DNA from: Dehalococcoidia bacterium
GTDB lineage: Bacteria > Chloroflexota > Dehalococcoidia > Dehalococcoidales > SURF-40
NCBI GenBank assembly: GCA_003599745.1
Contig: QZJL01000058.1
Span: 1-54,464 of the forward strand
Length of the DNA stretch: 54,464 nt
Reading direction: 5' to 3'
In this document: in pieces, positions 1-44,809 of the stretch
Layout of the letters: each line of letters opens with the position of its first letter
How positions within the stretch are numbered: position 1 is the first letter of the stretch
Position numbers and translations under genes: made by a program
Notes under the pieces: generated by a model
The model's input: only the letters and a program-made list of their open reading frames with translations
The model's database searches: none
Told to the model about the DNA's origin: nothing

Positions 1-1
1 C

Positions 2-202
2 GTCCTTTCCACTCTGAATCCCCGGGAACAACGAATAATTCAACTGAGATTCGGGCTTGAAGATGGACAAAGCCGCACGTTAGAGGAGGTAGGCAAGGTG
101 TTTAACGTAACTAGAGAACGGATTCGTCAGATAGAAGCCAAGGCAATCCGTAAATTACGCCACCCCACCCGCAGCCGCAAACTCAGAGGCTACCTGGAAT
201 AG
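2..202 (+). CDS. rpoD: RNA polymerase primary sigma factor, C-terminal fragment (gene starts upstream of window)
   Basis: Frame 2 reads ..[62 protein letters not shown], with TAG at 200-202. This is the sigma-70 region 4 HTH signature. It is absent from the ORF track because no start lies in the window. Confidence 0.85.
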
Positions 203-243
203 GACTGGACTAGCAGGTGTCAGGAGTAAGGCAGGAGAAATAA

Positions 244-534
244 ATGAAAGATATTACAGAACTAATCGAAGAACTGAAACATAGGGATAGTAATGTCAGG
301 CAGAATGCCGCGGAAACGCTTGGAATGATAGGTGATGAAAAAGCAATCGATTCTCTCACGTTGGCCTTGAAAGACACAAACAGGTTTGTTCGACAAGATG
401 TAATAGCGGCGCTTGGCAAAATCGGAGGCGCAAGGCTAGCGGAATCTCTTACTCAAGCCTTCGAAGAAGAAAAGGATGAAGTTGTGAGAGATTCGATAGA
501 AAGAGCCCTGGAGAAATTGCAGAAAATAGCTTGA
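244..534 (+). CDS. HEAT-repeat (PBS-lyase-like) protein
   Basis: 96-aa ORF with three repeats of the type D.N.VR..AA.aLG.IGdekAi..L (HEAT_PBS pattern). ATG start. Confidence 0.7.
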   Translation: MKDITELIEELKHRDSNVRQNAAETLGMIGDEKAIDSLTLALKDTNRFVRQDVIAALGKIGGARLAESLTQAFEEEKDEVVRDSIERALEKLQKIA

Positions 535-878
535 TATGCACAGCATCACATACCGCGCTTAACATATGGATCCCGGCAATAAGCAAAGCGACCGTAAAGA
601 GGCGATTGCAAAGTTGTCTTTTTGTCACATACTCAAAATGGGGCTGGACTGCGGCCACTGTGGCAAGGTACAACGGCACAAGTGTAAAGAGGGCGAATCA
701 ATGCCGTCTTTTCATCCTGCCCTAGAAGGATATTATAAGATAAAAGGAAGCAGCAAGGGGATTTTGTCGCAAGGACAACAATCCCTCAGCCTCGTTACAC
801 TCCTTTCACCTATTGAAAAGCCCAGCCATCGGTGCTAGAATGCCCACATCAGGTAATCACGCCTGAAGGAGGCCAGCC

Positions 879-1292
879 ATGACCAACCACGCTAAAGTCG
901 GCGGGATTCTCTCCATCATCTCCGGCGCATTCGGCATTTTAGGGCTGTTCTGGTGCATCTTGATGCTCTATTTTTTCCAGCTAATGGTCAGTTACGCCCC
1001 ATACGCTTTCCCGTCCCCCGAGGATGAGCTGGCCTTACAGTTTATGTCACTCTATTTCGTGGTTATTGGCGTATTTTTGGCGATATTGGGCATCATTGCC
1101 ATCGTAGGTGGCGTCTATACCCTTAAAAGGAAGCTCTGGGGACTGGCTTTGGCCGGGGCGATTTGCGGCACCATCACTTTTTCCCCGACCGGCATCGCCG
1201 CCATAATTTTCGTGGTCATGGGCAGGCCGGAGTTTTACGCACCAGTACCACCGCCAGCTACTTCTTCTTCCGCCCCGCCAGCCGCTTCATAA
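879..1292 (+). CDS. small polytopic membrane protein with Pro/Ser/Ala-rich tail
   Basis: GAAGGAGG RBS 6 nt before the ATG. Three to four hydrophobic helices. No family recognised. Confidence 0.6.
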   Translation: MTNHAKVGGILSIISGAFGILGLFWCILMLYFFQLMVSYAPYAFPSPEDELALQFMSLYFVVIGVFLAILGIIAIVGGVYTLKRKLWGLALAGAICGTITFSPTGIAAIIFVVMGRPEFYAPVPPPATSSSAPPAAS

Positions 1293-1400
1293 TGGCGTCG
1301 GCATAAACCTTCGCCAGGTTTTTACCGTGCATCTGTATGCGCTCGCGCTTTTTGCGTAGCTTTGCCTCGCGCCGCGCCTGCCGGGTCTCGATGTCCTCGC

Positions 1401-3386
1401 TCACCTTCTGGCCACCTCGACAAACTCCAGCCCCTGCCGCAGCTCGTAGATGCGGTCGCGCATCAGCGCCGCCTTCTCGAACTCCAGGTTTTTGGCGGCG
1501 GCTTTCATCTGAACCTGTAAATCCTTGATAAGTCGGGCAATCTCCTCGCGGCCGGCGGGGGCGGTGTAAGACGCGCGCTCCTCGGCCACCACTTTCACCC
1601 GCTCGGTGATGTCCTTGATGGCCTTGCGGATACCCTGCGGGGTGATGTGGTGCTCTTGGTTATAGGCTTCCTGGATAAGGCGGCGGCGCTCGATTTCCGC
1701 CATCGCCCGCTTCATGGATTCGGTTACTTCGTCGGCGTACAAAATGGCGTGACCGTCAATGTGGCGGGCGGCGCGCCCCATGGTCTGGATGAGCGCCTGC
1801 TCGGAGCGCAAATAACCCGCTTTATCGGCGTCCAGTATTGCCACCAGGCTCACCTCCGGCAGGTCGAGCCCCTCCCGCAGCAGGTTGATGCCCACCACCA
1901 CATCATAGACGCCCATGCGCAGGTCGCGCAGGATTTCCACCCGCTCCAGCGTTTCCACCTCGGAGTGGAGGTAGTGGGTCTTGATGCCCATTTCAATCAG
2001 ATAGTCGGCCATCTCCTCGGCCATGCGCTTGGTGAGGGTAGTCACCAGGCAGCGTTCGCCGCGCGCCACCCGGACCTTAATCTGGTGCAAAAGGTCGTCA
2101 ACCTGTCCCCTGGTCGGCTTCACTTCAACAGTCGGCTCCAGCAGGCCGGTGGGACGCACCAGCTGCTCGGCCACCTGCTGGCTGTGCTGGTATTCGTATG
2201 GGGAGGGGGTCGCCGAGACGTAAATCACCTGCTTCAGGCGCTCGTTGAACTCGTCAAAGTTGAGGGGGCGGTTGTCGAAGGCCGATGGCAGGCGGAAGCC
2301 GTACTCCACCAGCGTCTCCTTGCGCGAGCGGTCGCCGTGGTACATGCCGCGCACCTGGGGCAGCGTCATGTGGGACTCGTCAATGAACATCAGGAAGTCG
2401 TCGGGGAAATAGTCCAGAAGGGTATAGGGAGCGCTGCCCGGGGCTCGTCCGGCAAGGTGGCGCGAGTAGTTTTCCACGGCGTTGCAGTAGCCGGTCTCGG
2501 CCAGCATCTCGATGTCGTAGTTGGTGCGCATTTCCAGCCTGGCAGCCTCCAGCAGTTTGCCTTTGGCCTTCAGTTTGACTAACTCCTCGGCCAGCTCCTG
2601 CTTGATGCCCTCGATAGCCGCCATCAGCCGGTCGTGCGAGGTGACGAAATGCTTGCCGGGATAGACGTCGATTTCGCCAAGCTCGGTTAAAATCTCGCCG
2701 GTGAGCGGCTCAATCCGGACGATGCGCTCAATCTCATCGCCGAAAAACTCAACCCGCAGCGCAATCTCCTCGTAGGCGGGCATCAGCTCCAGGGTGTCGC
2801 CGCGCACGCGAAACTTGCCCCGGCTCAAATCCATGTCATTGCGCTGGTACTGCATGTCCACCAGCCGCCTCAAAAGCTTCTGGCGGGGATAGCTCTGCCC
2901 CTTTTTAAGATTTAGGACAAAGCTGCGGTACTCCTCGGGCGAACCTAAACCGTAGATGCAGGAAACCGAGGCTACGATGACAGTGTCGCGCCGCTCGAAA
3001 AGGGCGCGGGTGGCGGCGTGGCGCAGCTTGTCAATCTCCTCGTTGATGTCAATGTCTTTTTCGATGTAGGTGTCGGTGGCGGGCAGGTAGGCCTCGGGCT
3101 GGTAGTAGTCGTAGTAGCTCACGAAATATTCCACCGCATTGCCGGGGAAGAACTCGCGGAACTCGCTGTAAAGCTGGGCGGCCAGGGTTTTGTTGTGGCA
3201 GAGCACCAGCGTGGGCCGCTGCACGCGGGCAATGACATTGGCCATGGTGAAGGTCTTGCCGCTGCCGGTGACGCCCAGCAGCGTCTGCTGCTTATAATTT
3301 TGCGCAAGGCCGCCCACCAGCTTATCAACCGCCTGGGGCTGGTCGCCGGTCATTTTGAAATCGGAAACTAGCTCAAACTGAGGCAT
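1401..3386 (-). CDS. uvrB: excinuclease ABC subunit B
   Basis: 661 aa. Starts [23 protein letters not shown], carries Walker A GVTGSGKT and helicase motifs, and has the C-terminal UVR domain ([16 protein letters not shown]). Confidence 0.97.
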
Positions 3387-3492
3387 TTTGTGACCTTTTA
3401 GAGTGGAGCTTGCTAAGAATAGTATAGGGGGAGAGAGGGAATGGATGCAATTAGAGGGGAACTACCAGATTTCTTTGGCCCCTTTGATCGAA

Positions 3493-4224
3493 TTAGAAGT
3501 CGGCGAATGTCTTACCCTTTAAATAGTCGGGAAAAGTGTAGATGCCAGTTACCTGTAACCAACACTTATTATCTTCTGCCCACGGCCGTGCCAGTCCCAA
3601 GCGTAGATATAATCTAACAGATTCCTGAAAAGTCTTCTTCAATTCTTCGGCAACTTTTTTCGGTTCTTTATGTTGTCTTATAACTTGCGAATAGCATCGA
3701 TTCCATAGCGTCAGATCACTTACAGGTCGGCAATATGTGCGCCTATTTTTGTCAACAAATGTGACCCTAGGCTTAGCATTCTTCCCGGTTAATTCAATAT
3801 CAACGATTCTAGCGCCTGACAAAGTAGCGATAGATCTGGTCTCAGTACCAGGTAATACCCAATCGTTGCCACTTAGATGTCCTTCAAAAATATCTTCTAC
3901 AGCATCAAACGAGGTTTGCTGCAACGCCCTCTCCCACTCGGCATTGGTACAAAATCCCTTGCCTGTAATTGAGTCAGGGTTGAAACCCATATCTTCGATA
4001 TGCGGAGGATTAACCTTAATGACATGTAGGTCAAATTCTACCTTAGCCGAAGGTCGTACAATTGCTAAATGGTTCCTTTTCAAATAATTTTTCTGAAAAC
4101 CACCATTACATATTAGCCTGACAGAATTCCCATCTTCATCAAGTCCAACAACGCAAACTTCATTTCCATTGCTGAATTCCCGAGGCATCTGGGTCAGGTC
4201 AGTTATCACAATTGTTTTGCGCAT
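3493..4224 (-). CDS. uncharacterised 243-aa protein, third gene of the DUF488 cassette (possibly a dual-OB-fold family, unverified)
   Basis: ATG begins 11 nt after the stop of the upstream DUF488 gene. AT-rich codon usage like its two neighbours. Two beta-rich halves and no catalytic motif recognised. Confidence 0.6.
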   Translation of the reverse strand: MRKTIVITDLTQMPREFSNGNEVCVVGLDEDGNSVRLICNGGFQKNYLKRNHLAIVRPSAKVEFDLHVIKVNPPHIEDMGFNPDSITGKGFCTNAEWERALQQTSFDAVEDIFEGHLSGNDWVLPGTETRSIATLSGARIVDIELTGKNAKPRVTFVDKNRRTYCRPVSDLTLWNRCYSQVIRQHKEPKKVAEELKKTFQESVRLYLRLGLARPWAEDNKCWLQVTGIYTFPDYLKGKTFADF

Positions 4225-4235
4225 TCTTGTTCTCT

Positions 4236-4676
4236 TTATAAATGCACAATTTCAGTTTTTGTTGGTATAATCCGAGCCAAATATTCCGCAGCTAGACGTC
4301 GATGACAACGGGTGGGTTTGGCTTCGGAACAAAGTAATACCACGCCCTCTTCCAACAATACCGACGAAATATGATTCTCGACTTTGCGTTGCCGTATCAA
4401 CTCTAGGTATCTCCGTTCATATTCTGCCCAATCACTTGTTTTTCGGTATTCCTTTAATATTGATTCTTCTGGTGCAAATATTGGGGACTCATGATATTCA
4501 ATGTTAACCAGATGCCTTAGAAAATAAGGCAGGTCGTTCCTTTTTGTAAATCCTGCCAGCTGAGAGTTATTACTAAGGCGAATATCCAGCAAGTGTTTCG
4601 CCCCGCTACTACGCAAAGCTTCAAAAAACTTCTCAGCAGTCTTTTTGGTGAAACCGATGGTATAAATATTCAACAA
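4236..4676 (-). CDS. DUF488 family protein (paralog B)
   Basis: Starts (TTG)LNIYTIGFTKK. Contains LDIR and C-terminal LLCSEAKPTRCHRRL, the DUF488 hallmarks. Begins 4 nt after the stop of paralog A. Confidence 0.8.
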   Translation of the reverse strand: MLNIYTIGFTKKTAEKFFEALRSSGAKHLLDIRLSNNSQLAGFTKRNDLPYFLRHLVNIEYHESPIFAPEESILKEYRKTSDWAEYERRYLELIRQRKVENHISSVLLEEGVVLLCSEAKPTRCHRRLAAEYLARIIPTKTEIVHL

Positions 4677-4680
4677 AATC

Positions 4681-5193
4681 TCACATCGGGAGTGGATATT
4701 GACTAGCTGCTACCCCTACTTTTTCTTTCCACAGGTCTTCATCCGTTTGGATGCGTCCATCGCCCCGAATATGAAATATTTTCACCCCAGCTTGACGCAA
4801 ACTGTCGGCGACTAACATGTTGCGATGGCAAGAAATTGGGTTCTCCTCTGCGCACATAATGCAAACTCTATATCTTTTAACCTCATCCAAAATTCGTCTG
4901 ATTCCGTACCTGTAGTTTTCTTTTCCTTGAATCAATTTATAATCTACTTTACCTGTTTGATTGTCGTAACTATCTAATTCTGACGGCCTCCCGCCTAACA
5001 TGTCGCCCAGGTAAATGTAGTGGATTCTAGCTAGCTTCAACACCTTTTCTAAGTTATCTTTATCTGCAAACGTCGCCCAGCGACTTGTAGGATTACTTCG
5101 CACGTCTACAAGTACTTGGATTTTCGTGCCAATCAGTAATGCTACGAATTGCTCTTGAGTATGGTTGCTATGTCCTATCGTATATATTTGCAT
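4681..5193 (-). CDS. DUF488 family protein (paralog A)
   Basis: Starts MQIYTIGHSNHT. Contains VDVR and IMCAEENPISCHRNML, the DUF488 hallmarks. Confidence 0.85.
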   Translation of the reverse strand: MQIYTIGHSNHTQEQFVALLIGTKIQVLVDVRSNPTSRWATFADKDNLEKVLKLARIHYIYLGDMLGGRPSELDSYDNQTGKVDYKLIQGKENYRYGIRRILDEVKRYRVCIMCAEENPISCHRNMLVADSLRQAGVKIFHIRGDGRIQTDEDLWKEKVGVAASQYPLPM

Positions 5194-5302
5194 TTAAGGA
5201 GTCCTGTCCAATGAATTGACTGTACACAAATAAATTAGCACAAATATTTAACTCGGGCAATTATCTGTCAGTGAAACAGCTTTCACAGCTCTTATAATTA
5301 TC

Positions 5303-5887
5303 TTACTTCCCCCCATAATATGAGAGCGCCAGCCTGATTTTCTCTTCCAGCCCCAGCTTCGAGTCTCGCGGCAGGCTGGAAACCGCCTGCGCTGCCTCGC
5401 TCGTCGAGTAGCCCAGCGAGACCAGCGCCGCCAGCACCTCGGCGTTCTCCGGAGCAAGCTCGGGGGCGGAGATGGCGAGCATCCCGGCGCTGACCTTATC
5501 CTTAAGCTCAAGGATGATGCGCTCGGCGGTCTTTTTGCCGATACCAGGTATCCGGGTGAGCATCAGACTGTTGGAGGTGGCGATGGCCGCCGCCAGCTTT
5601 TCCGGCTCCATCACACTCAACATCGCCAGGGCGAGTTTCGGGCCGATGCCCGAGACCCCGATGAGCACCTCGAAAAGCCCCAGTTCCTCCTGGGAGGTCG
5701 AGCCGAAGAGGCTGATGTTGTCCTCGCGGACGTGCAGGTGGGTAAAGAGCTTGACCTTGCCGCCAGGGCTGCCAATCTGACTTAAGTCGGAGTTCGGCAC
5801 AAACACCTTGAAGCCGACGCCGCCAACGTTGACGACCACCCAGTCATCGCCCATCGCTTCCAGTGTCCCGGTAAGGTTGCTAATCAC
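5303..5887 (-). CDS. ruvA: Holliday junction branch migration complex subunit RuvA
   Basis: I trimmed the track ORF to the GTG at 5887, which is preceded by GAGGAGG. The protein starts VISNLTGTLEAMGDDWVVVNVGGVGFKV (typical RuvA N-terminus) and has HhH motifs (IPGIGKKTAERI). The GTG overlaps the ruvC TGA (GTGA). Confidence 0.9.
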   Translation of the reverse strand: MISNLTGTLEAMGDDWVVVNVGGVGFKVFVPNSDLSQIGSPGGKVKLFTHLHVREDNISLFGSTSQEELGLFEVLIGVSGIGPKLALAMLSVMEPEKLAAAIATSNSLMLTRIPGIGKKTAERIILELKDKVSAGMLAISAPELAPENAEVLAALVSLGYSTSEAAQAVSSLPRDSKLGLEEKIRLALSYYGGK

Positions 5888-6396
5888 GATTCGTCCTCCT
5901 CCGCAGACGCGATTATCCCACCCAGGCGCACCATGCGCAGGTGGCAGATAGCACATGCAAGGGCGTCGGCGGCGTCGCTGGGCTGGGGAACCGTATCGAG
6001 ACCCAGCTGCAGCTTCACCATCTCCTGGATTTGCTCTTTAGAACTGGCGCCGTAGTCGGTCACCGTCTGCTTTATCTGTGCGGGAGTGTATTCAAAGCTC
6101 GGCAGATTCGCGCCGGCGGCGGCCAGGATAGCAACCGCCTGCGCCCGGCCGATGGCCAGGGCGGCGCGCACGTTTTTGGCGAGGAAGGGACGCTCGATAG
6201 CGACTGCCTCGGGGCGATTGGTAGAAATGATTTTCAAAAGCTCGCGGTAGTAGAAATAAAGACGCTCGCCGATGGGCGAACTGGCGGGGCGTCTCAGGGC
6301 GCCGTAACAAATCATAGTGATGTCGTCGCTGGCGTCCGACAGCACGATACCATAACCCATGCTCACCGTGCCGGGGTCAATGCCCAGGATTTTCAT
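5884..6396 (-). CDS. ruvC: crossover junction endodeoxyribonuclease RuvC
   Basis: I trimmed the track ORF to the ATG at 6396 (MKILGIDPGTVSMGYGIV, the canonical RuvC start containing the catalytic Asp). The C-terminal DAADALACAICH motif is present. Confidence 0.9.
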   Translation of the reverse strand: MKILGIDPGTVSMGYGIVLSDASDDITMICYGALRRPASSPIGERLYFYYRELLKIISTNRPEAVAIERPFLAKNVRAALAIGRAQAVAILAAAGANLPSFEYTPAQIKQTVTDYGASSKEQIQEMVKLQLGLDTVPQPSDAADALACAICHLRMVRLGGIIASAEEDES

Positions 6397-6610
6397 AGCT
6401 ATACTGTACCCGAAAAACATCAGAGATACAATGCGGGCGTATTTGGGGGGACGTATCATTTTGGGGCTGAAATCCGGGCAAGGTAGGGATGCGACCTTCC
6501 TCCCCCAGATTGCCACGTCACTTCGTTCCTACAATGACATTGGAGACAGGCCTTGGAATATCAATTTGATGCGCTGCCGCATTTCGGGATTTATTGAGCA
6601 GCTGCTGATA

Positions 6611-7381
6611 TTACCGGGAAGCGCTTTGCGCCTCGGCCTCGTGCTTGGCTAAAATCTCGGGAGAGAAGTCGGCGTTGGAATAGACGCCGTTGACATCATC
6701 CAGCTCTTCAAGGCGGTCGAGCAGCTTCAGCGCCTGGAGCCCCGGTTTTTCTTCCAGCTTGATGAGGGTCTTGGCGACCATCGAAAGCTCGGAAGAGTCC
6801 ACGTGCACCCCGGCGGCTTCCAGGGCTTTGCGCACCGCTTCTGTCTCCTCGGGCTTGGTATAAATCTCGATGTCGCCGTTGGACTGCTGGACGTCCTCGG
6901 CGCCGGCGTCAATCGCTTTAAGCTCAAGCTCCTCGACATCCCGGTCGCCGCCCTTGACGGTTATCATGCCGCGCGACTGGAAAAGCCAGGCGACGCAGCC
7001 GCTTTCTCCCAGGCTGCCACCGTGCCGGGTAAAGGCGTTGCGCACTTCCTGGAGGGCGCGGAGGCGGTTATCGGTCATCACCTGCACCAGGATAGCGGTG
7101 CCGCCCGGCCCGTAGCCCTCGAGAATGAACTCCTGGAGAGCGGCCCCTCCGCCCTCGCCGGAGCCTTTCCTGATGGCACGGTCAATGTTATCGAGGGGCA
7201 TGTTGGCGTCCCGGGCTTTCTGCACCGCCAGGCGCAGGCGGAAGTTAGCTTCGGGGCTGGGGCCGCCGGCGCGCACCGCCACGATGATTTCCCGCGCCAG
7301 TCTGGTGAAGAGCTGGCCACGCTTGGCGTCCGCGGCACCTTTCTGGTGCTTGATGGAAGACCATTTCGAATGACCCGACAT
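6611..7381 (-). CDS. YebC/PmpR family DNA-binding transcriptional regulator
   Basis: Starts MSGHSKWSSIKHQKGAADAKRGQLFTRLAREI, which is diagnostic of this family. Confidence 0.95.
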   Translation of the reverse strand: MSGHSKWSSIKHQKGAADAKRGQLFTRLAREIIVAVRAGGPSPEANFRLRLAVQKARDANMPLDNIDRAIRKGSGEGGGAALQEFILEGYGPGGTAILVQVMTDNRLRALQEVRNAFTRHGGSLGESGCVAWLFQSRGMITVKGGDRDVEELELKAIDAGAEDVQQSNGDIEIYTKPEETEAVRKALEAAGVHVDSSELSMVAKTLIKLEEKPGLQALKLLDRLEELDDVNGVYSNADFSPEILAKHEAEAQSASR

Positions 7382-7416
7382 GCCATGTCCCTCCGGGCGG
7401 TTTCACTGATATTCTA

Positions 7417-8028
7417 TCACAAACATTTCAGGTGCGAAACGTCATTGAGCAGGCGCAGAACACCGCCCGGCGAATAGGTCTCGATGATGCTGAGCGAGGC
7501 CAGTTCCAGACGGAACCGCCAGCGGTGCTCCAGCCCGATGCCCAGAAGACGGCAAATCAGGGTGCGCAGCGGGCCGTTGTGGGCGACCACCAGCAGCGTT
7601 TCACCGGCGGTATGCTTTTCGAGGCGTTTCGTGAACCGGCTCACCCGGCGGTTAAACGTAGCGACTGCATCCCCACCCGGGAACACCAGTTTTAGCGTGC
7701 GCTTCTTCCAGAGGCCGGCGACGTCGGGGAAGCGCTGCTCGATTTCGCTGAAAGTAAGCCCCTCAAGCTGGCCGAAGTCAATCTCGCGGAGCTCCGGGCA
7801 GATGGTCACACCAAGGCCGTGTCTTGAGGCGATGAGTTCAGCGGTGGTGCGGGCGCGGGCGAGAGGACTGGCGTAGATGGCATCAATTTTTTCCGAAGCC
7901 AGCCGTTCGCGCAGCCGTGCCGCCTGCTCAAGGCCGAGAGCGCTCAGGGCGACATCGGTCGCACCCCAGTAACGCTCGCTACTCTTTAATTCCGTCTCAC
8001 CGTGTCGTACCAGAAACAAACGTGCCAT
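7417..8028 (-). CDS. cobC: histidine phosphatase family protein, probable alpha-ribazole phosphatase
   Basis: Starts LFLVRHGETE (RHG motif) and has a second His motif VVAHNGPLR. Lies immediately upstream of cobS. Confidence 0.7.
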   Translation of the reverse strand: MARLFLVRHGETELKSSERYWGATDVALSALGLEQAARLRERLASEKIDAIYASPLARARTTAELIASRHGLGVTICPELREIDFGQLEGLTFSEIEQRFPDVAGLWKKRTLKLVFPGGDAVATFNRRVSRFTKRLEKHTAGETLLVVAHNGPLRTLICRLLGIGLEHRWRFRLELASLSIIETYSPGGVLRLLNDVSHLKCL

Positions 8029-8043
8029 CTATACCTCTAAATT

Positions 8044-8823
8044 TTAGGCCAGCCCGATGTGTACCAGCAGCGAGAGCATGACCAATGCCGTCGCCTCGGC
8101 AAGCTCGCCGACCGCGCCGTAAGCAGCAATGTTGAGACCGCCGAAACGGCTTTTCAAATAGAGGCCGAGCAGTCCTGCCACCGCAAAGACACCCGCCATT
8201 ATCACCAGCCCCGGCAGCCTCGCCAGGGAAAAGGTGACGCCGAGGGCGATAAGCGTGGCCGCCAGCATACCGTACCACCTTGCGCCGCGCTTGAAATCGC
8301 CGTCCGGCCCCGACGGGCGGGCGCCGCGGAAGCTGAAAATGGCATAGACCATCGCCCAGCGTCCCAGCACCGGGAAATAAATCAGGGCGTACAGCCACAG
8401 GCTCTGGCTCTGGGGCAGGCTGTCGAGCGCGACGTACTTGAGCAGTAACAGCGCTGCCACCGCGATGATGCCGAAGCTGCCGACACGCTTATCGTCGGTT
8501 ATCCGGAGACGGGTCTCCGGGCCGGCGTGACTGACCAGACCATCGGCGGTATGCGCCAGGCCGCCAAGCTGGCGGGCACCGGAAAATGCCGCCAGGCCGC
8601 CGATTATCAGCACATTGACCAGCGCCGATGGGAAAAGAAGCTTGAGCAGCCAGCCCGAAGCCGCCAGAAAGAGGCCGATGACCAGTCCAACCAGCGGGAA
8701 AAACAGGGCCGAAGCCCCGATTTCGCCCGGGCTGAGCGGGCGGCGTAGGGGCAAGGGGATGGTGGTCAGGTATCTTAAGGCTGCCAGGAATTTCAAACGG
8801 GGCTCCTCGGGTGCCGGTGGCAA
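8044..8823 (-). CDS. cobS: adenosylcobinamide-GDP ribazoletransferase
   Basis: Polytopic membrane protein with the N-terminal LRYLTTIPLP motif typical of CobS. Adjacent to the cobC-like gene. Confidence 0.85.
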   Translation of the reverse strand: MPPAPEEPRLKFLAALRYLTTIPLPLRRPLSPGEIGASALFFPLVGLVIGLFLAASGWLLKLLFPSALVNVLIIGGLAAFSGARQLGGLAHTADGLVSHAGPETRLRITDDKRVGSFGIIAVAALLLLKYVALDSLPQSQSLWLYALIYFPVLGRWAMVYAIFSFRGARPSGPDGDFKRGARWYGMLAATLIALGVTFSLARLPGLVIMAGVFAVAGLLGLYLKSRFGGLNIAAYGAVGELAEATALVMLSLLVHIGLA

Positions 8824-9034
8824 CGTTGCCGGTTAATATTGTAAACTAGACTATAGTAATACATTAACCGCTGGAGCTTCAATATCGCTTTACATATTAT
8901 TTGGCACTTCACAGCCAAATAACAACAAATACCGCCTATTCCACCACCGAACACAGTCCATTTATTCTGTAACACCTTGTCGGCGCTCCAGCACCGAGCA
9001 GGAAGACACATTCCCCCTGCACTCCTTTGCACCT

Positions 9035-9295
9035 TTACTCAGACTCTTCAACCGCATCTTCAAATCCGCTACATTGATTTACACCTATTGCCAGGTCAAA
9101 CTGGAACTCCTTATCCGTAACATACTTTTCCCTAATCCTTTTTTCCAACTTTACTAAAAGAACAGTTATTTCATCATTTATCTTCCCTAACTCTTCGTCA
9201 AACAGCCCGTGGACTACTTCGCTCACGTCCGAATTCCCCATATACGGGCACTCATCTTTACTATAAAAGTATTTACAACCAGCACAAGTACTCAA
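9035..9295 (-). CDS. hypothetical Cys-containing small protein (element, downstream of rep)
   Basis: 86-aa ORF 19 nt downstream of rep on the same strand. N-terminal CAGC..x9..C motif followed by an acidic coiled tail. Confidence 0.5.
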   Translation of the reverse strand: MSTCAGCKYFYSKDECPYMGNSDVSEVVHGLFDEELGKINDEITVLLVKLEKRIREKYVTDKEFQFDLAIGVNQCSGFEDAVEESE

Positions 9296-9314
9296 TTTCT
9301 ACACCATCCTAATA

Positions 9315-10364
9315 TCAATTTACGCAACGGAGCATACCTTCGCTTAGCTCTTCCACTACACCGCCACCAAGCAACGATGCTTTGAACCTCACCTTGCCAT
9401 CCGGCGCGGTGTAGGTACAGGCCTTCAGCGCGTCAAACAACACCACTCCCTTAAACGCCCATTCGCCAGCAGGAGACTCCTTGACGAATTCAGGTAATCG
9501 ATAACATTGCGAGTAACTATAAACCCGCTTTTTATAATACCATAGGTAAGACTGGCTTTCTTCAGTCCAACCTTCCAGCTTCGATACATACTTGCAACAA
9601 TACGAAGCTACATTTACCCGATTCTTATTCTCCAAACCACTACGCCCGTACTTCCATAATACAGACATTTCATCCTCTGCACGAACAAGAAATTGCAAAC
9701 CGGGGAAAAAGACGTGTAAATGAGGATATCCAAACGCCTCATTCCTTACCCTGTGCGACCCCTTTTTATGAGCATCACACTTTCTACCGTTAGCATCCTC
9801 AAAATGATACTCCGGTATCTCTTCAACCGCTTTCAAATATTTATAGCTATTCTTTTCTACTCTGAACCTCCGGGTATTTAACGTGTGCATTAACTTCCGT
9901 AAATGCACATTACAATCTCGCCACGCTTCCTCTTTAGTATAGCGTTTTGGGTCATAGGTCAGCGTCATCAACACTCCATCAGAAAACCACCTCGAACCTA
10001 AACGCTTCCGTATATTTCGTTGCATCAGCTTACGGCCACCAGCAAAATATCTTGATTTTTCCGCCGCCCTCACCACCATATAATCAGGAAAAGGCTTTTT
10101 ACTATCATACTTAGCTAACACGACCCCTTTGCTTTTCAACCTTTCTTTATGAGCTGCGAACTCAGCGCGGTCTTCTTTTGAAATCAGCGGTTTAACCCGT
10201 GACACATTAACTCTATTATGGACAAGGAAAGTAGGATTGTTTAAAAACTCTCCATTTTTATTACGCCAGCCCTGGGCGTACGAGCTTATCCCTTGCAAAC
10301 TAACCTGGGTCTGGTTAATTGATATATCTTCGGTTGACTCGGTTAAAAACGCCGTCTTTTTCAT
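9315..10364 (-). CDS. rep: rolling-circle replication initiator (HUH endonuclease, two-Tyr superfamily I)
   Basis: Three ordered motifs: VLMTLTYD (motif 1), GYPHLHVFF (HUH) and YCCKYVSK (Y-x-x-K-Y, as in phiX174 gpA-type Reps). AGAGGTG RBS. Confidence 0.75.
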   Translation of the reverse strand: MKKTAFLTESTEDISINQTQVSLQGISSYAQGWRNKNGEFLNNPTFLVHNRVNVSRVKPLISKEDRAEFAAHKERLKSKGVVLAKYDSKKPFPDYMVVRAAEKSRYFAGGRKLMQRNIRKRLGSRWFSDGVLMTLTYDPKRYTKEEAWRDCNVHLRKLMHTLNTRRFRVEKNSYKYLKAVEEIPEYHFEDANGRKCDAHKKGSHRVRNEAFGYPHLHVFFPGLQFLVRAEDEMSVLWKYGRSGLENKNRVNVASYCCKYVSKLEGWTEESQSYLWYYKKRVYSYSQCYRLPEFVKESPAGEWAFKGVVLFDALKACTYTAPDGKVRFKASLLGGGVVEELSEGMLRCVN

Positions 10365-10385
10365 CCACTACACCTCTTTTTAAGG

Positions 10386-10420
10386 GGTGGCGGATTAACC
10401 GCCACCACCTTTAATCCGCC
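10386..10420. promoter_or_regulatory. two mutually exclusive hairpins just upstream of the rep start
   Basis: GGTGGCGG-ATTAA-CCGCCACC (10386..10406) shares its left arm with the inverted repeat GGCGGATTAA (10389..10398) / TTAATCCGCC (10411..10420). Confidence 0.5.
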
Positions 10421-10623
10421 TTTCCTTTTTTAAGTGCACGGCATTGGCAGCACATACCGCCAGTTAGCCGTTTCCACTAATCTACACCGCAACTACACTA
10501 AAAACAAGTATCCAGTTTTCAAGGCTTTTACCTCATATCTTCTTTTTCCCTATTTACCCTATACCCTTTTTTCTTATTCATACTTTATACTCAAATCAAT
10601 TTAAAAATGAGTATATTCTTCTG

Positions 10624-10713
10624 TCGGGGAAGCACCGGTGCCGCAACCATACTCCGTATGGTCGTCTCGCTTTCCTGTAACCCAGCCTCACTTTGCGGCA
10701 GGCACTTCCCCGA
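10624..10713. other. 90-nt nested stem structure in the element control region
   Basis: Outer stem TCGGGGAAG (10624..10632) / CTTCCCCGA (10705..10713). Middle stem TGCCGCAA (10639..10646) / TTGCGGCA (10693..10700). Inner hairpin CCATAC-TCC-GTATGG (10647..10661). Confidence 0.4.
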
Positions 10714-10782
10714 CCTTACCATCCTTTCCGGTCTAGGTAATCCTTACTTCGCTATCACCATCTTTAATGGAACTATTCATTA

Positions 10783-10882
10783 TTGTCTGCCTGACCTTTC
10801 AAAGTTTATACCCTTGTCAAGGGACGCTACGCTCTAAAGCCCTTGACTTACGGGTTTCTTAAATTATTGAACAGGCAGACAA
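10783..10882. repeat. 11-bp perfect inverted repeat flanking the integrase promoter region
   Basis: TTGTCTGCCTG (10783..10793) and CAGGCAGACAA (10872..10882), each preceded by ATTATTG. The palindrome CCCTTG-T-CAAGGG lies between them. Confidence 0.5.
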
Positions 10883-10910
10883 GAAGTGCCTAGTTAAAGG
10901 AGAGTGAATT

Positions 10911-11780
10911 ATGGATAGAGCTCAGTACAGTACCTACGGAGAGATTATTTACCAAGACCTACTCGGCCGTGGCAAAAAACCATCTTCTGCCAAACAATGG
11001 GGAAGCATTATCACCAAGTTCGAGCAGATATGCGGCAACAAATCATCTTACGACCGGTCAGACGTCATCAAGTACCTTGCCGCCCGCAGACAAGCCGGTA
11101 TCAAGCAAAATACCATCAACAAAGAGTTACACGCTCTCAAGCTCCTCTGGCAATTGCTGGAAATCGATAAATTCCCGAAACTTAGTATGCCAAAAGTTAA
11201 AGACTCAGATATATCACGCCCTATCCTCGCCAAAGACCAGATAATACAGCTTATCCAGCGTAGCTTCGATACAGTCTCACCACGCTACCAGGCTTTCCTG
11301 GCCCTTGCCACGGTATACGGCATCCGCCGCGAAGAAATAACTCGTATCAACCCGAGCGAGCACATCAAAAACGGTCAGCTCACCATCCTTACCGCTAAAG
11401 GTGGCGTACCTACCAACCATATCATTCCTGAATGCCTACAACCTATCCTCAAGCACTTCGACCCTACCGATGTAATCTATCTAAGCTCAGTGTTCCGCAG
11501 GATTTGTCGCGCCTGCGGTATCAAAACAGGCAAGCGCTACGGCTGGCACAGCATACGCCGGGCACTCGTAACCGAGCTAGTCATATCCGAGGCATCAGGT
11601 CTTAATATCGTACGCTTTATGCGATGGAGCGACCAAACTTCCGGCAACGGCGAGTTCGGAATGCTCACTCTCTACGCCAAAAAAGACCAAGCTCAAATCG
11701 ATAAACAGATTTTCGCCGTTCATCCTTTCCTTCCAGTCTGGGAAAATCCCATCAACTTCAATACCAAAGGAGTAAAGTAA
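10911..11780 (+). CDS. tyrosine recombinase / integrase (paralog 1)
   Basis: Catalytic set in order: GIRREE (Arg), TAKGG (Lys), HSIRR (His-x-x-Arg), MRWSD (Trp), LYAKKD (Tyr). AAAGGAGAG RBS. Confidence 0.85.
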   Translation: MDRAQYSTYGEIIYQDLLGRGKKPSSAKQWGSIITKFEQICGNKSSYDRSDVIKYLAARRQAGIKQNTINKELHALKLLWQLLEIDKFPKLSMPKVKDSDISRPILAKDQIIQLIQRSFDTVSPRYQAFLALATVYGIRREEITRINPSEHIKNGQLTILTAKGGVPTNHIIPECLQPILKHFDPTDVIYLSSVFRRICRACGIKTGKRYGWHSIRRALVTELVISEASGLNIVRFMRWSDQTSGNGEFGMLTLYAKKDQAQIDKQIFAVHPFLPVWENPINFNTKGVK

Positions 11781-12670
11781 TGACCACCTGGTTAAGGTCT
11801 AAAAAAACATTTTCTCCCTACGGCGAAATGGTTTACCTTGACCTAATCGGTCGCGGCAAAACCTTACACACCGCCAGACAATGGGGGAACCTCATCTCCA
11901 ACTTCGAGCAGATATGCGGCAACAAATCATCTTACGACCGGTCAGACGTCATCAAGTACCTTGCCGCCCGCAGACAGGTCAACATCAACAACAATTCCCT
12001 AGTCCGCACTGAATTGGCCGCTCTCAAGCTTCTCTGGCAATTGCTTGAAATCGATAAATTCCCAAAACTCAATATGCCAAAAGTAAGGAATTATGACGTT
12101 CTACGGCCTATCCTCACCAAAGAACAAATCATCCAGCTTATTCAGTCAAGCTTCAACTCCGTTTCACTTCGTAATCAGGCTTTCCTGGCCCTTGCCACGG
12201 TATACGGCATCCGCCGCGAAGAAATGGCTCGCATCAACCCGAGCGAGCACATCAAAAACGGCCAGCTCACCATCCTTACCGCTAAAGGTGGCATACCCAC
12301 CAACCATATCATTCCTGAATGCCTACAAGCTATCCTCAAACACTTCGAGCCAATAGGGCCAACATCTCTTTCCACTTCCTTTCAGATTATCTGTAAATCC
12401 TGTGATATCCACCTCGGCCAGCGTTACGGCTGGCACAGCATACGCCGGGCACTCGTAACCGAGCTAGTCATATCCGAGGCATCAGCCCTTAACATCGTAC
12501 GCTTTATGCGATGGAGCGACCAAACTTCCGGCAACGGCGAGTTCCGGATGCTCGCACGCTACGCTAAAAAAGACCAAGCTCAAATCGATAAACAGATTTT
12601 CGCCGTTCATCCTTTCTTAAAATACTGGCAAACGCCAGTCAAAGCATACACCGAAGGAAAAGTAAAATGA
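11780..12670 (+). CDS. tyrosine recombinase / integrase (paralog 2)
   Basis: Same catalytic set as paralog 1 (GIRREE, TAKGG, HSIRR, MRWSD, RYAKKD). Its start overlaps the paralog 1 stop (TAATG). Confidence 0.85.
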   Translation: MTTWLRSKKTFSPYGEMVYLDLIGRGKTLHTARQWGNLISNFEQICGNKSSYDRSDVIKYLAARRQVNINNNSLVRTELAALKLLWQLLEIDKFPKLNMPKVRNYDVLRPILTKEQIIQLIQSSFNSVSLRNQAFLALATVYGIRREEMARINPSEHIKNGQLTILTAKGGIPTNHIIPECLQAILKHFEPIGPTSLSTSFQIICKSCDIHLGQRYGWHSIRRALVTELVISEASALNIVRFMRWSDQTSGNGEFRMLARYAKKDQAQIDKQIFAVHPFLKYWQTPVKAYTEGKVK

Positions 12671-12831
12671 CTAACGAAGCCGCCTGTATCACCTGCGAAT
12701 TTCTTACCAGCATCAATTGTCCTCGTCAAGATGAACTGGATAAATACGAGGACCCGGTAAAACCATTCTGCACCACTTGCCCTTTCTGGAAGCCATACAT
12801 TGACAAACGCTGCAAAATTACTCTATATTAA
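12667..12831 (+). CDS. 54-aa Cys-rich mini-protein (not in ORF track)
   Basis: The ATG overlaps the integrase-2 TGA (ATGA). Translation is MTNEAACITCEFLTSINCPRQDELDKYEDPVKPFCTTCPFWKPYIDKRCKITLY, with CxxC..C...CxxC..C zinc-ribbon-like spacing. Confidence 0.45.
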   Translation: MTNEAACITCEFLTSINCPRQDELDKYEDPVKPFCTTCPFWKPYIDKRCKITLY

Positions 12832-12867
12832 CTCACACAGAGGAATATATTCCTAAAGGAGTGCTAA

Positions 12868-13092
12868 ATGCAACTGATATTGACTCTCACCAGTCCACCA
12901 TATAATACCAGCCCAGCTATTCACACCTACTACTTGCACCGCAAAAACAAACACAGGCTATTATCCCTCAAAGTTACCACCTGCGAAATACCGCCATCCG
13001 GTTATACCTTCGCCGAGAAAATAAACGCCAATAATCCCGAAGAAGCCTGGGCTATCGCTAAAAAAATCACAGCAAAATCACTACTTCCATAA
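12868..13092 (+). CDS. hypothetical 74-aa element protein
   Basis: AAAGGAG RBS. Very AT-rich. Shares a ~25-aa module (INANNPEEAWAIAKKI) with the next ORF. Confidence 0.4.
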   Translation: MQLILTLTSPPYNTSPAIHTYYLHRKNKHRLLSLKVTTCEIPPSGYTFAEKINANNPEEAWAIAKKITAKSLLP

Positions 13093-13102
13093 ATACCGGC
13101 AG

Positions 13103-13741
13103 ATGCCAATCAAAATGAAGCACAAAACCAAAACTTACTTCGTATATATCTATACCACGGCAAAATCAATGCGCCTTGACCTATCCTCACATTATTACGA
13201 AAATATTGGGAAAGGCTACCGGCTTTTTACCAGTATCAACGCATCATCATTTGACTCGGCCATAGACCGACTCTCCCACCTCTTCAACACAACATTCTCT
13301 TTCGAAAATCCAGTCACCAACTCCACATACTTCTTGCTTCATTTAAAAACCCAAAAGCCTAACCATAACCTAATCAGACCAACAAATCTTAAAATATTGC
13401 ATTGGAGCAAAATAACTAAAAAAATGCTCCAATCATCAACCGTCCTCTCAAGAATTGAAGCACGCTCTTATGAACAAGCCATTAATTGGTTTATATCTGA
13501 ATTCGATACCACACGCGAAATAAAACAATACCTTCTACACCTCGACATCTACAAACAACTAGCCATTGAAAACCACCAAAACAAAATACTTGAACTTTCA
13601 GGTCTTAAATACGTATGCAATCCTAAAATAATCACTAGAAATAACAGAAACGTTTTAATATCAATTGGAGGACATTTCATTAAAATCGGCAACGAAGAAC
13701 AAATTTACAGACCAGTGGAAGACCCCTTTAGTATCTATTAA
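13103..13741 (+). CDS. hypothetical 212-aa element protein with two copies of the same module
   Basis: Contains INASSFDSAIDRLSHLF and IEARSYEQAINWFISEF. No family recognised. Confidence 0.5.
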   Translation: MPIKMKHKTKTYFVYIYTTAKSMRLDLSSHYYENIGKGYRLFTSINASSFDSAIDRLSHLFNTTFSFENPVTNSTYFLLHLKTQKPNHNLIRPTNLKILHWSKITKKMLQSSTVLSRIEARSYEQAINWFISEFDTTREIKQYLLHLDIYKQLAIENHQNKILELSGLKYVCNPKIITRNNRNVLISIGGHFIKIGNEEQIYRPVEDPFSIY

Positions 13742-13901
13742 AAATTGACCAAAACCCCTCAGTCCACTTATACTAGAATATGAACAACCACGCTCGCTCA
13801 GTATACTTTTAGCTTCAACAGTCTAAACTATTTTAGGGTGGAGTAATAGTCTCTGGCCAACCGTCCGGTCGGGACCAAATTAATTACCCACTAAAGTCGT
13901 T

Positions 13902-14573
13902 ATGGAAATTACGCTGTTAATCGCCTTCTCCGCAGGTTTACTGGCCTTTCTGTCGCCATGCGTTTTGCCGCTGGTACCCGTCTATCTTGCCAGCGTCTGC
14001 GGCCCGCAGGTCTTTGACCCCGCCGTCCGGCCCGGGCATCTGGTGATATTGCGCCACACCCTCGGCTTCATCCTGGGTTTTTCCCTGGTCTTTGTCGCGA
14101 TGGGAGCCGCCGCCGGCTTCGCCGGTTTCGTCCTGAACTCCAGTGCCACTGTCCGCAGCGTCGGGGGCGGCCTGATGGTTCTTATGGGGCTATTTGTCCT
14201 GGCCGGTCTGAAATTCCCCTGGCTGAACTACCAGCGGGGGTTTCACCTTTCCCCGGGCAACATAACCGGCTCCCTGCGCTCCCTGGTAGTCGGGGCGGTC
14301 TTTTCCCTGGCTTGGGCGCCGTGCATTGTCGCCCTGCTGGGGGGCACCCTGTCGCTGGCGCTGAGTACCGGAGGGTGGTGGCAGGGCAGTTACCTGCTGG
14401 CCGCCTTTTCACTGGGCATCGGGCTGCCTTTCGTCATTATCGGTCTCGCCTTCGACGCCCTTTCTCCCCGTATTAAACGTCTCGGACGATACTCCCTGCG
14501 GTTGCACGCCGCCAGCGGTCTGCTGATGATAGCGGTGGGCATCAGTATTCTGGCGGGCTGGCTGGGAAGCTAG
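13902..14573 (+). CDS. ccdA: cytochrome c biogenesis protein CcdA (DsbD transmembrane domain family)
   Basis: N-terminal FLSPCVLPLVPVY motif, a second conserved Cys (WAPC), and six TM helices. Confidence 0.85.
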   Translation: MEITLLIAFSAGLLAFLSPCVLPLVPVYLASVCGPQVFDPAVRPGHLVILRHTLGFILGFSLVFVAMGAAAGFAGFVLNSSATVRSVGGGLMVLMGLFVLAGLKFPWLNYQRGFHLSPGNITGSLRSLVVGAVFSLAWAPCIVALLGGTLSLALSTGGWWQGSYLLAAFSLGIGLPFVIIGLAFDALSPRIKRLGRYSLRLHAASGLLMIAVGISILAGWLGS

Positions 14574-43891: not shown

Positions 43892-44809
43892 TTAATCTGC
43901 TTCCCGTCCTTTCAAAATATCTTTCAATCTTTCCAGTTCTTCATTACTATCAGAGTAGATTTCACGCTCGCAGTAAATCGCTTTTAGAGAATTCATCGCC
44001 TCCACTTCTCCCTTATTGAATTCTCTTATCTCGTATTCTTTTGTGGTTGGGGCAAAGATGACTTCTTTTCTAAACATATAAATCATATATTCTGGTGCTA
44101 TGGGAAAGTAGACTTCATATGGAAGGCTAAATTTTCTTAGCTCATATCTTTTGACAAGACTTTTGTGAAGATAAGGAGGAAAGTCACTTGTCACAAATTT
44201 TTTATCAGGAGGAGCCTTTGCTACAACCCACCTGTAATCTAGGAACATATCACGAGACGGGTCATTGTGGGGGTTATGAGGAGTGCCAATAGCACCTGTT
44301 AAAACGTCCCTGACTGTAAACATTGTCATCACTGATTCCCGAAACTCCTTCTCAGAAAAGCCATTCTCTTTTATGAGGTTACCACTTGCATCCATTATCT
44401 TATCGAACGATTCTTCCCCAATCCTGTTGCGCATAAACGTTTGAGGCACAGCATGCCTCATCATCTGTGACCCAATAAACTCGGCTAAACCCCAACGTGT
44501 TTCCTCATCAATTTCGTCTTTCGCACCGCCCAAATAAGCTATCATTGTTCGTAAACAACCAGCAAAACGGTTGTCTAACTCGCTTAAAGCTCTCTCAAAA
44601 AAATCTTTCCCAAATATTGTGCCTTTTAGCATCCCTACGTTAAACAAGTTGTTTCTGCCACCCACGTTTCTAGTCTTTTGTTTTCTTATCTCAAGCCGTC
44701 GCTTGTCAAGCACAAATATCTCATCATTCTCACTATTGTCCTTTCTATCTATAGCCCAATAGTTCAAATAAAACTGGGGAACCATATGTTGGTATTTACT
44801 TTCACTCAT
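43892..44809 (-). CDS. DUF4238 domain protein (AT-rich orphan)
   Basis: N-terminal HMVPQFYLNYW matches the DUF4238 H.VPQFYL signature. AT content is clearly higher than in neighbouring genes. Confidence 0.7.
   Translation of the reverse strand: MSESKYQHMVPQFYLNYWAIDRKDNSENDEIFVLDKRRLEIRKQKTRNVGGRNNLFNVGMLKGTIFGKDFFERALSELDNRFAGCLRTMIAYLGGAKDEIDEETRWGLAEFIGSQMMRHAVPQTFMRNRIGEESFDKIMDASGNLIKENGFSEKEFRESVMTMFTVRDVLTGAIGTPHNPHNDPSRDMFLDYRWVVAKAPPDKKFVTSDFPPYLHKSLVKRYELRKFSLPYEVYFPIAPEYMIYMFRKEVIFAPTTKEYEIREFNKGEVEAMNSLKAIYCEREIYSDSNEELERLKDILKGREAD

Follow-up and report, generated by a model that had tools for sequence, protein, structure and literature searches.

A putative integrative rolling-circle replicon with tandem tyrosine recombinases in a Dehalococcoidia genome

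Several kinds of small mobile elements encode a rolling-circle replication protein. In the pSAM2-type integrative and conjugative elements of actinomycetes (AICEs), an int gene (with xis) is combined with a rolling-circle rep gene, and excision is followed by rolling-circle replication; AICEs measure 9-24 kb and carry spread genes and an FtsK-like Tra protein for the conjugation of double-stranded DNA. The filamentous-phage satellites RS1 and TLC-phi of Vibrio cholerae are small, chromosomally integrated and equipped with a rolling-circle initiator; they have no morphogenesis genes, encode no recombinase and use the host XerCD at dif, whereas pDolos is a rolling-circle plasmid that rides an inovirus and is not integrative (bioRxiv 10.1101/2023.11.28.569023; PMC6744903). 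In Archaea, the thaumarchaeal NitAQ6f-E2 is a cryptic integrated element with a rolling-circle Rep that is SNJ1/IS91-like, and the attachment (att) sites of archaeal cryptic integrated elements are sometimes too short to be detected (PMC6563490). The IME1 elements of Dehalococcoides, 21-28 kb in length and proposed to be filamentous or budding viruses, have primase-helicase replication, a pI-like ATPase and membrane proteins; they insert by tRNA or pseudo-tRNA genes, and their short XerCD-type integrase family is said to be widespread in Chloroflexota (bioRxiv 10.64898/2026.09.15.751708). Here we examine a 5.08-kb block slotted between cobS and ccdA in contig QZJL01000058.1 (54,464 bp), which belongs to a metagenome-assembled genome (MAG; NCBI tags C4555_*) of the Dehalococcoidia. 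The whole contig is called the window, and all positions are given in it unless a locus is named. At its maximal extent (8824-13901), the block is probably an integrated element that is not self-transmissible, and one variant within a widespread family of integrative rolling-circle replicons of Dehalococcoidia and other Chloroflexota. The Dehalococcoidia, which are relevant to bioremediation, resist cultivation; their genomes are small, and little is known of their mobilome.

Replication protein and tandem integrases

The block is compositionally foreign. Its mean GC content is 0.44, compared with 0.59-0.61 in the flanks, and along the contig the value falls from ~0.60-0.66 to 0.36-0.52 within ~8.8-13.9 kb, with maximum-likelihood change points at 8833 and 13921. 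The initial annotation had described an abrupt AT-rich drop at this place and a divergent gene layout round a 546-bp non-coding centre; the drop is confirmed by these values, and every listed open reading frame (ORF) is present as described. All of the ORFs are intact and lie close together, with start codons that overlap stop codons, and an independent assembly from JGI (locus L001) repeats the junction between cobS and the element, rep, int1 and the beginning of int2.

The gene rep (9315-10364, minus strand) encodes a 349-aa putative rolling-circle replication initiator with two catalytic-type tyrosines. Three lines of evidence, from sequence, motifs and fold, place it in the HUH Rep superfamily as a predicted nuclease. 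First, it matches the Pfam family PF23343 (REP_ORF2-G2P, Replication-associated protein ORF2/G2P) with 32.1 bits (E = 1.5e-7), above the curated cut-off of 27.8 bits. Second, it contains, all on the minus strand, motif I, TLTYD (9951-9965), conserved as LTLTYDP; the HUH motif II, GYPHLHVFFP (9702-9731), with H215 and H217 invariant; and motif III, YCCKYVSK (9579-9602), with Y255, Y259 and K262 invariant. In an alignment of 40 family members these motifs and an N-terminal SRYF..GR are invariant, the family patterns being SRYF..GR, TLTYDP, GYPHxHxxFP and YxxKYxxK. Two-tyrosine Reps, for instance those of filamentous phages and of phages of the phiX174 type, have the same arrangement; the protein is of the stand-alone nuclease type, without a helicase domain. 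Third, an AlphaFold model built with the family alignment as input (pLDDT 82.5) gave 64 matches at E <= 1e-3 in a Foldseek search of predicted viral structures (BFVD), and the named ones are Reps: the top match is protein 1 (Rep) of the single-stranded DNA (ssDNA) pleolipovirus HRPV-1 (2.6e-8), followed by microvirus Reps (~1.6e-4) and 'ORF2/G2P domain' proteins. Sequence searches of Rep against proteins of solved structure gave nothing significant. The motifs translate exactly as first quoted, and the alignment to HUH families, which had been named as the point at which the assignment could fail, is borne out by the Pfam match, the invariant motifs and the viral-Rep fold. A HMMER search of 1.84 billion representative proteins gave 153 related cluster representatives, of which 105 had E <= 1e-10 and the nearest were 40-53% identical; a word-indexed search of 5.8 billion proteins matched only Rep itself.

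On the other side of the centre lie the tandem paralogues int1 (10911-11780, plus strand; 289 aa) and int2 (11780-12670, plus strand; 296 aa), the start of int2 overlapping the stop of int1. Both products match the PHROGs integrase family phrog_1 (6.3e-17 and 8.2e-13, respectively), and they share 74% amino acid identity and 85-87% nucleotide identity. The catalytic set of Int1 is complete (R139, K163, H213, R216, W239 and Y255), Int2 keeps the equivalent full R-K-H-R-W-Y set, and these residues are invariant or nearly so among 25 family members. The scores of Int1 and Int2 against Pfam PF00589 (Phage_integrase), 20.7 and 22.3 bits, lie under its cut-off of 27.1; a profile of the integrase family, which has more than 400 members, chiefly from Dehalococcoidia and subsurface metagenomes, matches archaeal XerA (4a8e, 2.6e-8) and Cre. 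Judged by these residues and matches, both appear to be genuine tyrosine recombinases, as initially annotated, and are predicted to be short Xer/Cre-type enzymes without an arm-binding domain.

A sister copy from a different metagenome (L105; JGI 3300038436) is 1,651 bp long, colinear with 10606-12255 and 92.4% identical, and it retains the tandem integrase pair. Between the two copies, dN/dS (the ratio of nonsynonymous to synonymous substitution rates) is 0.06 for int1 and 0.15 for int2, 475 nt of which were available, which suggests that both integrases are under purifying selection. With a dS of 0.44 between the paralogues, the duplication predates the divergence of the copies, and both genes have been maintained.

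No element ORF matched a capsid, Zot/pI, packaging, relaxase or type IV secretion system (T4SS) family in Pfam, PHROGs, PADLOC or NCBIfam, no transmembrane segment was found in any of them, and no virion-gene fragments were found in the element; the statement that structural and transfer genes are missing thus stands. For Inoviridae, the pI/Zot-like ATPase and the small hydrophobic coat proteins were sought, with no Pfam or PHROG match and no transmembrane ORF; for Microviridae, the major capsid protein F/VP1 gave no match, and only Rep and the integrases are long enough. A relaxase, a T4SS, a coupling protein and an FtsK-like Tra, the hallmarks of integrative and conjugative elements (ICEs), integrative mobilizable elements (IMEs) and AICEs, had no Pfam or NCBIfam match in any ORF, nor had Y2_Tnp and Zn_Tnp_IS91, the Pfam families of IS91/ISCR. 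With the defining genes of each group lacking in all ORFs, the block is, as had been noted, no obvious Microviridae or Inoviridae prophage and no ICE.

Related elements in Chloroflexota

A scan of one genome per species yielded 17 loci with Rep relatives. Fourteen lie in MAGs of Dehalococcoidia or other Chloroflexota, and the remaining three in MAGs labelled Pirellulales, Peptostreptococcaceae and Brocadiaceae. Clustering of the neighbouring ORFs, together with Pfam searches, revealed a recurrent module consisting of a LuxR/GerE helix-turn-helix (HTH) protein, Rep, an HTH_17 (excisionase-like) protein and a 424-aa tyrosine integrase. In six loci this module and one to three further genes lie between direct repeats of 42-87 bp that represent the 3' half of a tRNA gene, with repeat spacings of 4823, 4892, 4910, 5070, 5508 and 5622 bp. 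The repeat-bearing gene, as identified by ARAGORN, is tRNA-Lys in five of the six and tRNA-Gln(ctg) in L021, whose other repeat copy reads Lys. These six relatives, of the same size class and delimited by att repeats, lend support to the initial reading of the block as a minimal integrative rolling-circle plasmid or satellite.

Two further loci broaden the picture. In L014, a short integrase of the window type (43% identity), Rep and a GmrSD gene directly follow tRNA-Thr(GGT), and a tRNA-Thr-like fragment lies ~4.1 kb downstream. In L106, two large serine recombinases of like orientation (34-1821 and 6353-7846 of that locus) stand on either side of the next-closest Rep homologue (P0125); this is either another doubled recombinase or a tandem of two elements. 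Because long, short and serine integrases all pair with this Rep family, Rep travels with interchangeable integrases in units of ~4-5.6 kb, and the block in the window adds to these units one whose layout is divergent and whose integrase is duplicated. No paper on rolling-circle elements in Dehalococcoidia or Chloroflexota was found in the full-text literature, and nothing similar to the element, whether in DNA or in protein, turned up in the known collections of phages and plasmids. The integrative rolling-circle replicons of Dehalococcoidia and other Chloroflexota, 4-5.6 kb in size, thus form a coherent family that apparently had not been described before; within it, the window member is distinct in its maintained tandem integrase pair, its non-tRNA location and its ORFan cargo.

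The further genes of the relatives are often anti-phage defence genes: AbiLi and AbiLii in L007 (9555-11403; 4.5e-74 and 4.4e-24), an NsnB-like gene in L019 (2315-3670; 2.7e-62), an NsnA/GmrSD-like gene in L009 (876-1940; 1.3e-42), a Ppl-like gene in L018 (5152-7359; 1.2e-18) and the GmrSD gene of L014 (8300-9367). Judged by these matches, the Rep-integrase family seems to behave as a carrier of defence genes. In the window, the corresponding slot is occupied by three plus-strand ORFs that we regard as candidate cargo. The first, orf54 (12667-12831), whose start overlaps the int2 stop, encodes a Cys-rich protein of 54 aa with two CxxC motifs; it has a sub-threshold zf-HIT match only, and NCBI left it unannotated, as a gap in the locus tags. 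It is followed by orf74 (12868-13092; 74 aa) and by orf212 (13103-13741; 212 aa), which has the lowest GC content (0.36) and the strongest third-position skew. Neither orf74 nor orf212 matched a family in Pfam, PHROGs, PADLOC or NCBIfam, which agrees with the earlier remark that the cargo proteins could be placed in no family. Among 5.8 billion proteins orf212 matched only itself, its single-sequence AlphaFold model is unusable (pLDDT 40), and no similarity was detected to a 211-aa protein of L014 or between orf74 and orf212.

Downstream of rep, on the minus strand, lies orf86 (9035-9295; 86 aa), with an N-terminal CxxC...C motif and weak, sub-threshold Zn-ribbon matches (Spt4/RpoE'') only; the JGI annotation has a 68-aa product at this position. 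A small Cys-rich protein, often with CxxC...CxxC, recurs directly after Rep in the family, without detectable homology among the examples (L023, 7740-7979; L106, 5167-5370; L007, 8905-9228; L011, 2616-2939; L006, 8846-9307; L015, 5650-6072; L022, 8854-9273), and orf86 shows no similarity to the ORFs next after Rep in L023 and L024. Such a protein might act as a partner of Rep with a Zn ribbon.

The closest Rep homologue (P0122) was found in an 8.3-kb contig (L023; Logan SRR20958211_3685, 1-8279) with 13 genes on a single strand, among them genes for a single-stranded DNA-binding protein (Pfam, 29.8 bits; cut-off 26), six consecutive membrane proteins, a weakly matched AAA protein, an HTH protein of the GerE type, Rep and a Cys-rich product of 79 aa; one membrane protein, of 701 aa, has a signal peptide and a C-terminal anchor. 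No terminal repeat, as a sign of circularity, was found in this contig. From its gene content, L023 looks like a complete small ssDNA virus, filamentous or budding, of undescribed type. Because of this virus-like appearance, the Rep family seems to have viral members, which could act as helpers. For Dehalococcoides, viruses of a filamentous or budding kind have been proposed (bioRxiv 10.64898/2026.09.15.751708).

Might the window block itself be the remains of such a virus? A small ssDNA or membrane-containing virus, L023-, pleolipovirus- or inovirus-like, could have lost its virion genes and its mobility, and four observations would suit this explanation: the fold and the family of Rep are viral in type, its closest homologue lies in the virus-like gene set of L023, the window copy has no detectable att repeats, and the cargo ORFs are ORFans. 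We nevertheless consider decay unlikely, since att repeats are intact in at least six genomes that share the compact plan of 4.8-5.6 kb, comparison of two diverged copies shows strong purifying selection on the integrases and on the non-coding centre, every ORF is intact and packed against its neighbours, and neither fragments of virion genes nor transmembrane proteins are present.

Another explanation would give the HUH protein a different role. HUH Rep-like proteins are relaxases in some IMEs and ICEs and Y2 transposases in IS91, and the window Rep, too, has two tyrosines spaced YxxxY; the block could then be an IME with the HUH protein as its relaxase, an origin of transfer (oriT) and a conjugative helper, or an IS91/Helitron-like transposon. 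This is very improbable. Besides the missing relaxase and Y2_Tnp/IS91 family matches, no T4SS or coupling protein was seen in those neighbourhoods of the relatives that were examined, the relatives have tRNA att repeats at their borders, as is usual for integrase-mediated insertion, and no IS91-type ends, and the fold matches are viral replication proteins.

Strand skew, non-coding centre and edges

The strand asymmetry of the block is unusual. On the plus strand, GC skew is negative (-0.2 to -0.5) over the whole block, in the leftward genes, the rightward genes and the non-coding parts alike, with maximum-likelihood change points at 8877 and 13828. Expressed on the Rep-sense strand, the skew is +0.28 in the island, compared with ~0 in the flanks. 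Each of the eight delimited integrated elements has a value within +0.15 to +0.39, whereas almost all of the flanks are at ~0. When only third codon positions are counted, the integrase and cargo genes, which lie on the strand opposite to rep, have a plus-strand skew of -0.38 to -0.65. Because these genes are opposite in orientation to rep and yet share its absolute skew, the skew in the window can be separated from transcription, and the window element is the only one that allows this separation. The pattern points to a replication-linked mutational bias in which one strand would repeatedly be single-stranded. An element-wide strand skew that is independent of gene orientation could serve as a simple computational signature for chromosomally integrated rolling-circle elements.

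The divergent intergenic centre (10365-10910, 546 bp) is non-coding, highly structured and conserved. Folded as ssDNA, it is far more stable than shuffled sequences on both strands (z = -8.2 and -8.6). Folding revealed three structures: a GC-rich hairpin directly upstream of the rep start codon (10382-10427); an imperfect hairpin of ~90 nt (10621-10714), nearly invariant in L105; and a hairpin of ~100 nt just upstream of int1 (10780-10885), with a nested inner hairpin. The portion shared with L105 (10606-10910) has diverged by 4.3%, compared with a dS of 0.30-0.38 in the adjoining integrase genes. This degree of conservation suggests that the centre is functional non-coding DNA, and it is a candidate site of the double- and single-strand origins and of divergent promoters. 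An Rfam search of the centre for non-coding RNAs and riboswitches gave no match, no tRNA-like sequence was found in it, and a sensitive blastn search with the three non-coding parts against all related loci gave nothing. GC hairpins similar to that at 10382-10427 lie upstream of rep in L010, L011, L014, L016 and L019. The hairpin was therefore considered as a conserved origin; in the relatives, however, T-runs follow it and an upstream gene precedes it.

Two ideas about the centre were considered and set aside. The 10-mer TGAAAGGTCA, which occurs in the centre and in nine of 17 related elements, had appeared to be a shared origin motif; in the relatives it represents the first codons of the long integrase gene (ATGAAAGGTCAT...), and because it is a coding start there, the window match is attributed to chance. 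The Xer-like pair and the long hairpins had also suggested integration through an ssDNA hairpin as in CTX-phi; since these hairpins occupy the centre of the integrated element and not one of its ends, the idea finds no support.

The position of the centre bears on a further explanation, namely that the block is composite, with a remnant of Rep and orf86 (8.8-10.6 kb) lying beside an integrase-led islet (10.6-13.9 kb) and an att site in the centre, as in IME1-type elements, in which the integrase gene comes first. Integrases of this family are normally found at the edge of an element, by a tRNA gene or a pseudo-tRNA (L014; IME1 criteria), related integrases occur in larger ParB/DnaB_2-type elements without Rep, and the L105 contig stops at 10606, within the centre. 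Both halves, however, share GC content and the unusual strand skew, third codon positions included; L014 unites this integrase type and this Rep family in a single 4.1-kb unit; the centre contains nothing tRNA-like; and the independent JGI assembly crosses it unbroken. A composite origin is therefore quite improbable. One of the larger elements with a related integrase (L004) encodes a 700-aa protein with faint matches to fn3 and to the N-terminal domain of purple acid phosphatases, which recalls the IME1 elements of Dehalococcoides.

The true ends of the element lie somewhere within 8797-8968 and 13760-13901, and composition cannot narrow them further. Because the GC content of host intergenic regions in the same contig spans 0.33-0.69, host promoters may account for the outermost ~130 nt at either side. 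The left non-coding end (8824-9034) holds no credible ORF and has an element-like skew (-0.34); a promoter scan placed a promoter-like site directed toward cobS at 8925-8896, and another, directed toward ccdA, at 13745-13774 in the right non-coding end (13742-13901). Outside the element lie the host genes cobS (8044-8823, minus strand; Pfam CobS, 3.8e-34) and ccdA/DsbD_TM (13902-14573, plus strand; Pfam DsbD_TM, 1.5e-18). CobS homologues align only from 8796 downstream, so that the TTG at 8823, the annotated start of cobS, possibly lies too far upstream. At 8818-8829 there is a perfect 12-bp palindrome, GGCAACGTTGCC, across this annotated start codon and exactly at the left compositional boundary. 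Two more low-GC islets occur in the window: one at 4236-5193 (GC ~0.41 compared with ~0.60), with two adjacent DUF488 genes beside ruvA, and one at 43892-44809 (GC ~0.40), with a gene for a DUF4238 protein (Pfam, 1.7e-34) adjoining a B12-binding radical-SAM gene.

Within the two end intervals, a low-confidence pair of candidate att cores was found on the plus strand, CAGTCCATTTATTCT (8954-8968) on the left and CAGTCCACTTATACT (13760-13774) on the right, identical at 13 of 15 positions (CAGTCCAyTTATwCT) and spaced by 4806 bp. Its alignment score of 20, compared with 18.3 +/- 2.4 in shuffles, is at chance level; flanking att repeats are present in the six relatives of the same Rep family and were not detected in the window copy.

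As to the site before insertion, 2.4-7.5 kb separate cobS from ccdA, upstream of it, in the CobS relatives, and the host-GC genes that fill this gap have no homologue in the window. In distant Dehalococcoidia relatives, co-oriented host-GC genes of ~306 and ~356 aa precede cobS, the latter abutting or overlapping it (L027, L028, L039, L061, L066, L091 and L101). No homologue of either gene was found in the whole 54-kb window, where the element fills the slot. The initial annotation had held that the same block at the same site in related genomes, with host-like composition, would argue against mobility; no related genome was found to have the block in such a form, and the only near-identical copies are the same element in other assemblies.

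Several observations weigh against the interpretation as an integrative rolling-circle replicon. Direct and inverted repeat searches revealed no att direct repeats above chance at the ends of the window copy, there is no tRNA gene anywhere in the contig, and the integrases sit in the middle of the element and not near an end as is usual. An empty site was not found, the metagenomic CobS relatives being at most 50% identical. Neither an origin or nick site nor a non-coding motif common to the window and its relatives was found; the GC-rich hairpins that precede rep could be nothing more than terminators. Foldseek comparison of the Rep model with solved structures gave nothing significant (best E = 0.025). 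With respect to skew, most genes of the relatives are co-oriented with rep, so that transcription could be a partial cause of the skew there. Finally, the dependence on a helper is purely inferred, and no relative of the window Rep was found in IMG/VR. With these points taken into account, an integrated rolling-circle replicon of the Chloroflexota family is still the probable identity of the block.

Mode of life and described counterparts

How might such an element persist and spread? We propose that Int1 and Int2, perhaps as a heteromer in the manner of XerC/XerD, would excise the element as a circle. Rep would then nick one strand at an origin in the central region and prime unidirectional rolling-circle replication with the helicase and polymerase of the host; the displaced Rep-sense strand would be converted to double-stranded DNA again by way of a hairpin single-strand origin, and the integrases would re-insert the circle. 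Because the element has no virion, packaging or conjugation genes, its spread from cell to cell probably depends on a helper, for instance a small membrane-containing or filamentous virus of Chloroflexota, or else on vesicles or transformation.

A bolder account goes further: the ~5-kb Rep-integrase units would be new minimal satellites, or 'defence shuttles', of undescribed small ssDNA membrane-containing viruses of Chloroflexota, with a pleolipovirus-like Rep and with L023 as a candidate helper; the window variant would enter a non-tRNA site by means of its own heteromeric Xer-like pair, and orf54-orf74-orf212 would form a new anti-phage or anti-helper system. We hold this combination to be rather unlikely. 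Minimal units that replicate and integrate by themselves could serve as vectors for the genetics of Chloroflexota, and the Rep-integrase units could mark an unseen lineage of ssDNA viruses and point to new defence genes.

Compared with described systems, the element, on the basis of its gene content, resembles in function three groups: the filamentous-phage satellites and pDolos, the int-xis-rep core of pSAM2-type elements, and the archaeal cryptic integrated elements. With RS1, TLC-phi and pDolos it shares a size of a few kb, a rolling-circle initiator and the lack of morphogenesis genes, and those elements spread in the virion of a helper. They differ in that their Reps are of the Rep_trans or Cri type, whereas that of the window belongs to PF23343, and in that the window element encodes its own recombinases; furthermore, the window element is not known to have a helper, a packaging signal or an association with virions. 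The likeness to pSAM2-type AICEs, drawn from general knowledge, lies in the int/xis/rep module and the tRNA-targeted integration seen in the relatives of the window element, which is itself smaller and has no FtsK-like Tra or spread genes.

The archaeal cryptic integrated elements likewise combine an integrase, a replication protein and a few genes of unknown or defence function, without virion or conjugation genes (PMC6563490). They belong to another host domain and have another Rep family, whereas the Chloroflexota set forms a tight size class and its window member has tandem integrases. With the Reps of the alphapleolipovirus HRPV-1, Microviridae and Inoviridae/Plectroviridae, the window Rep shares the order of the HUH and two-tyrosine motifs, the fold and the absence of a helicase domain; those are complete viruses, however, with capsid, spike or coat genes, and the Rep identity is <20%. 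IME1 comes from the same host class, has by description a short XerCD-type integrase and inserts next to tRNA genes, as does L014, but it is 4-5 times larger, and its primase-helicase, pI-like ATPase and membrane proteins have no counterpart in the window element. Finally, as in XerC/XerD and in TnpA/TnpB of Tn554 (general knowledge), Int1 and Int2 are adjacent, paralogous short tyrosine recombinases, catalytically intact and conserved; the paralogues of those pairs are far less alike than Int1 and Int2 (74% amino acid identity), whose joint action is conjectural.

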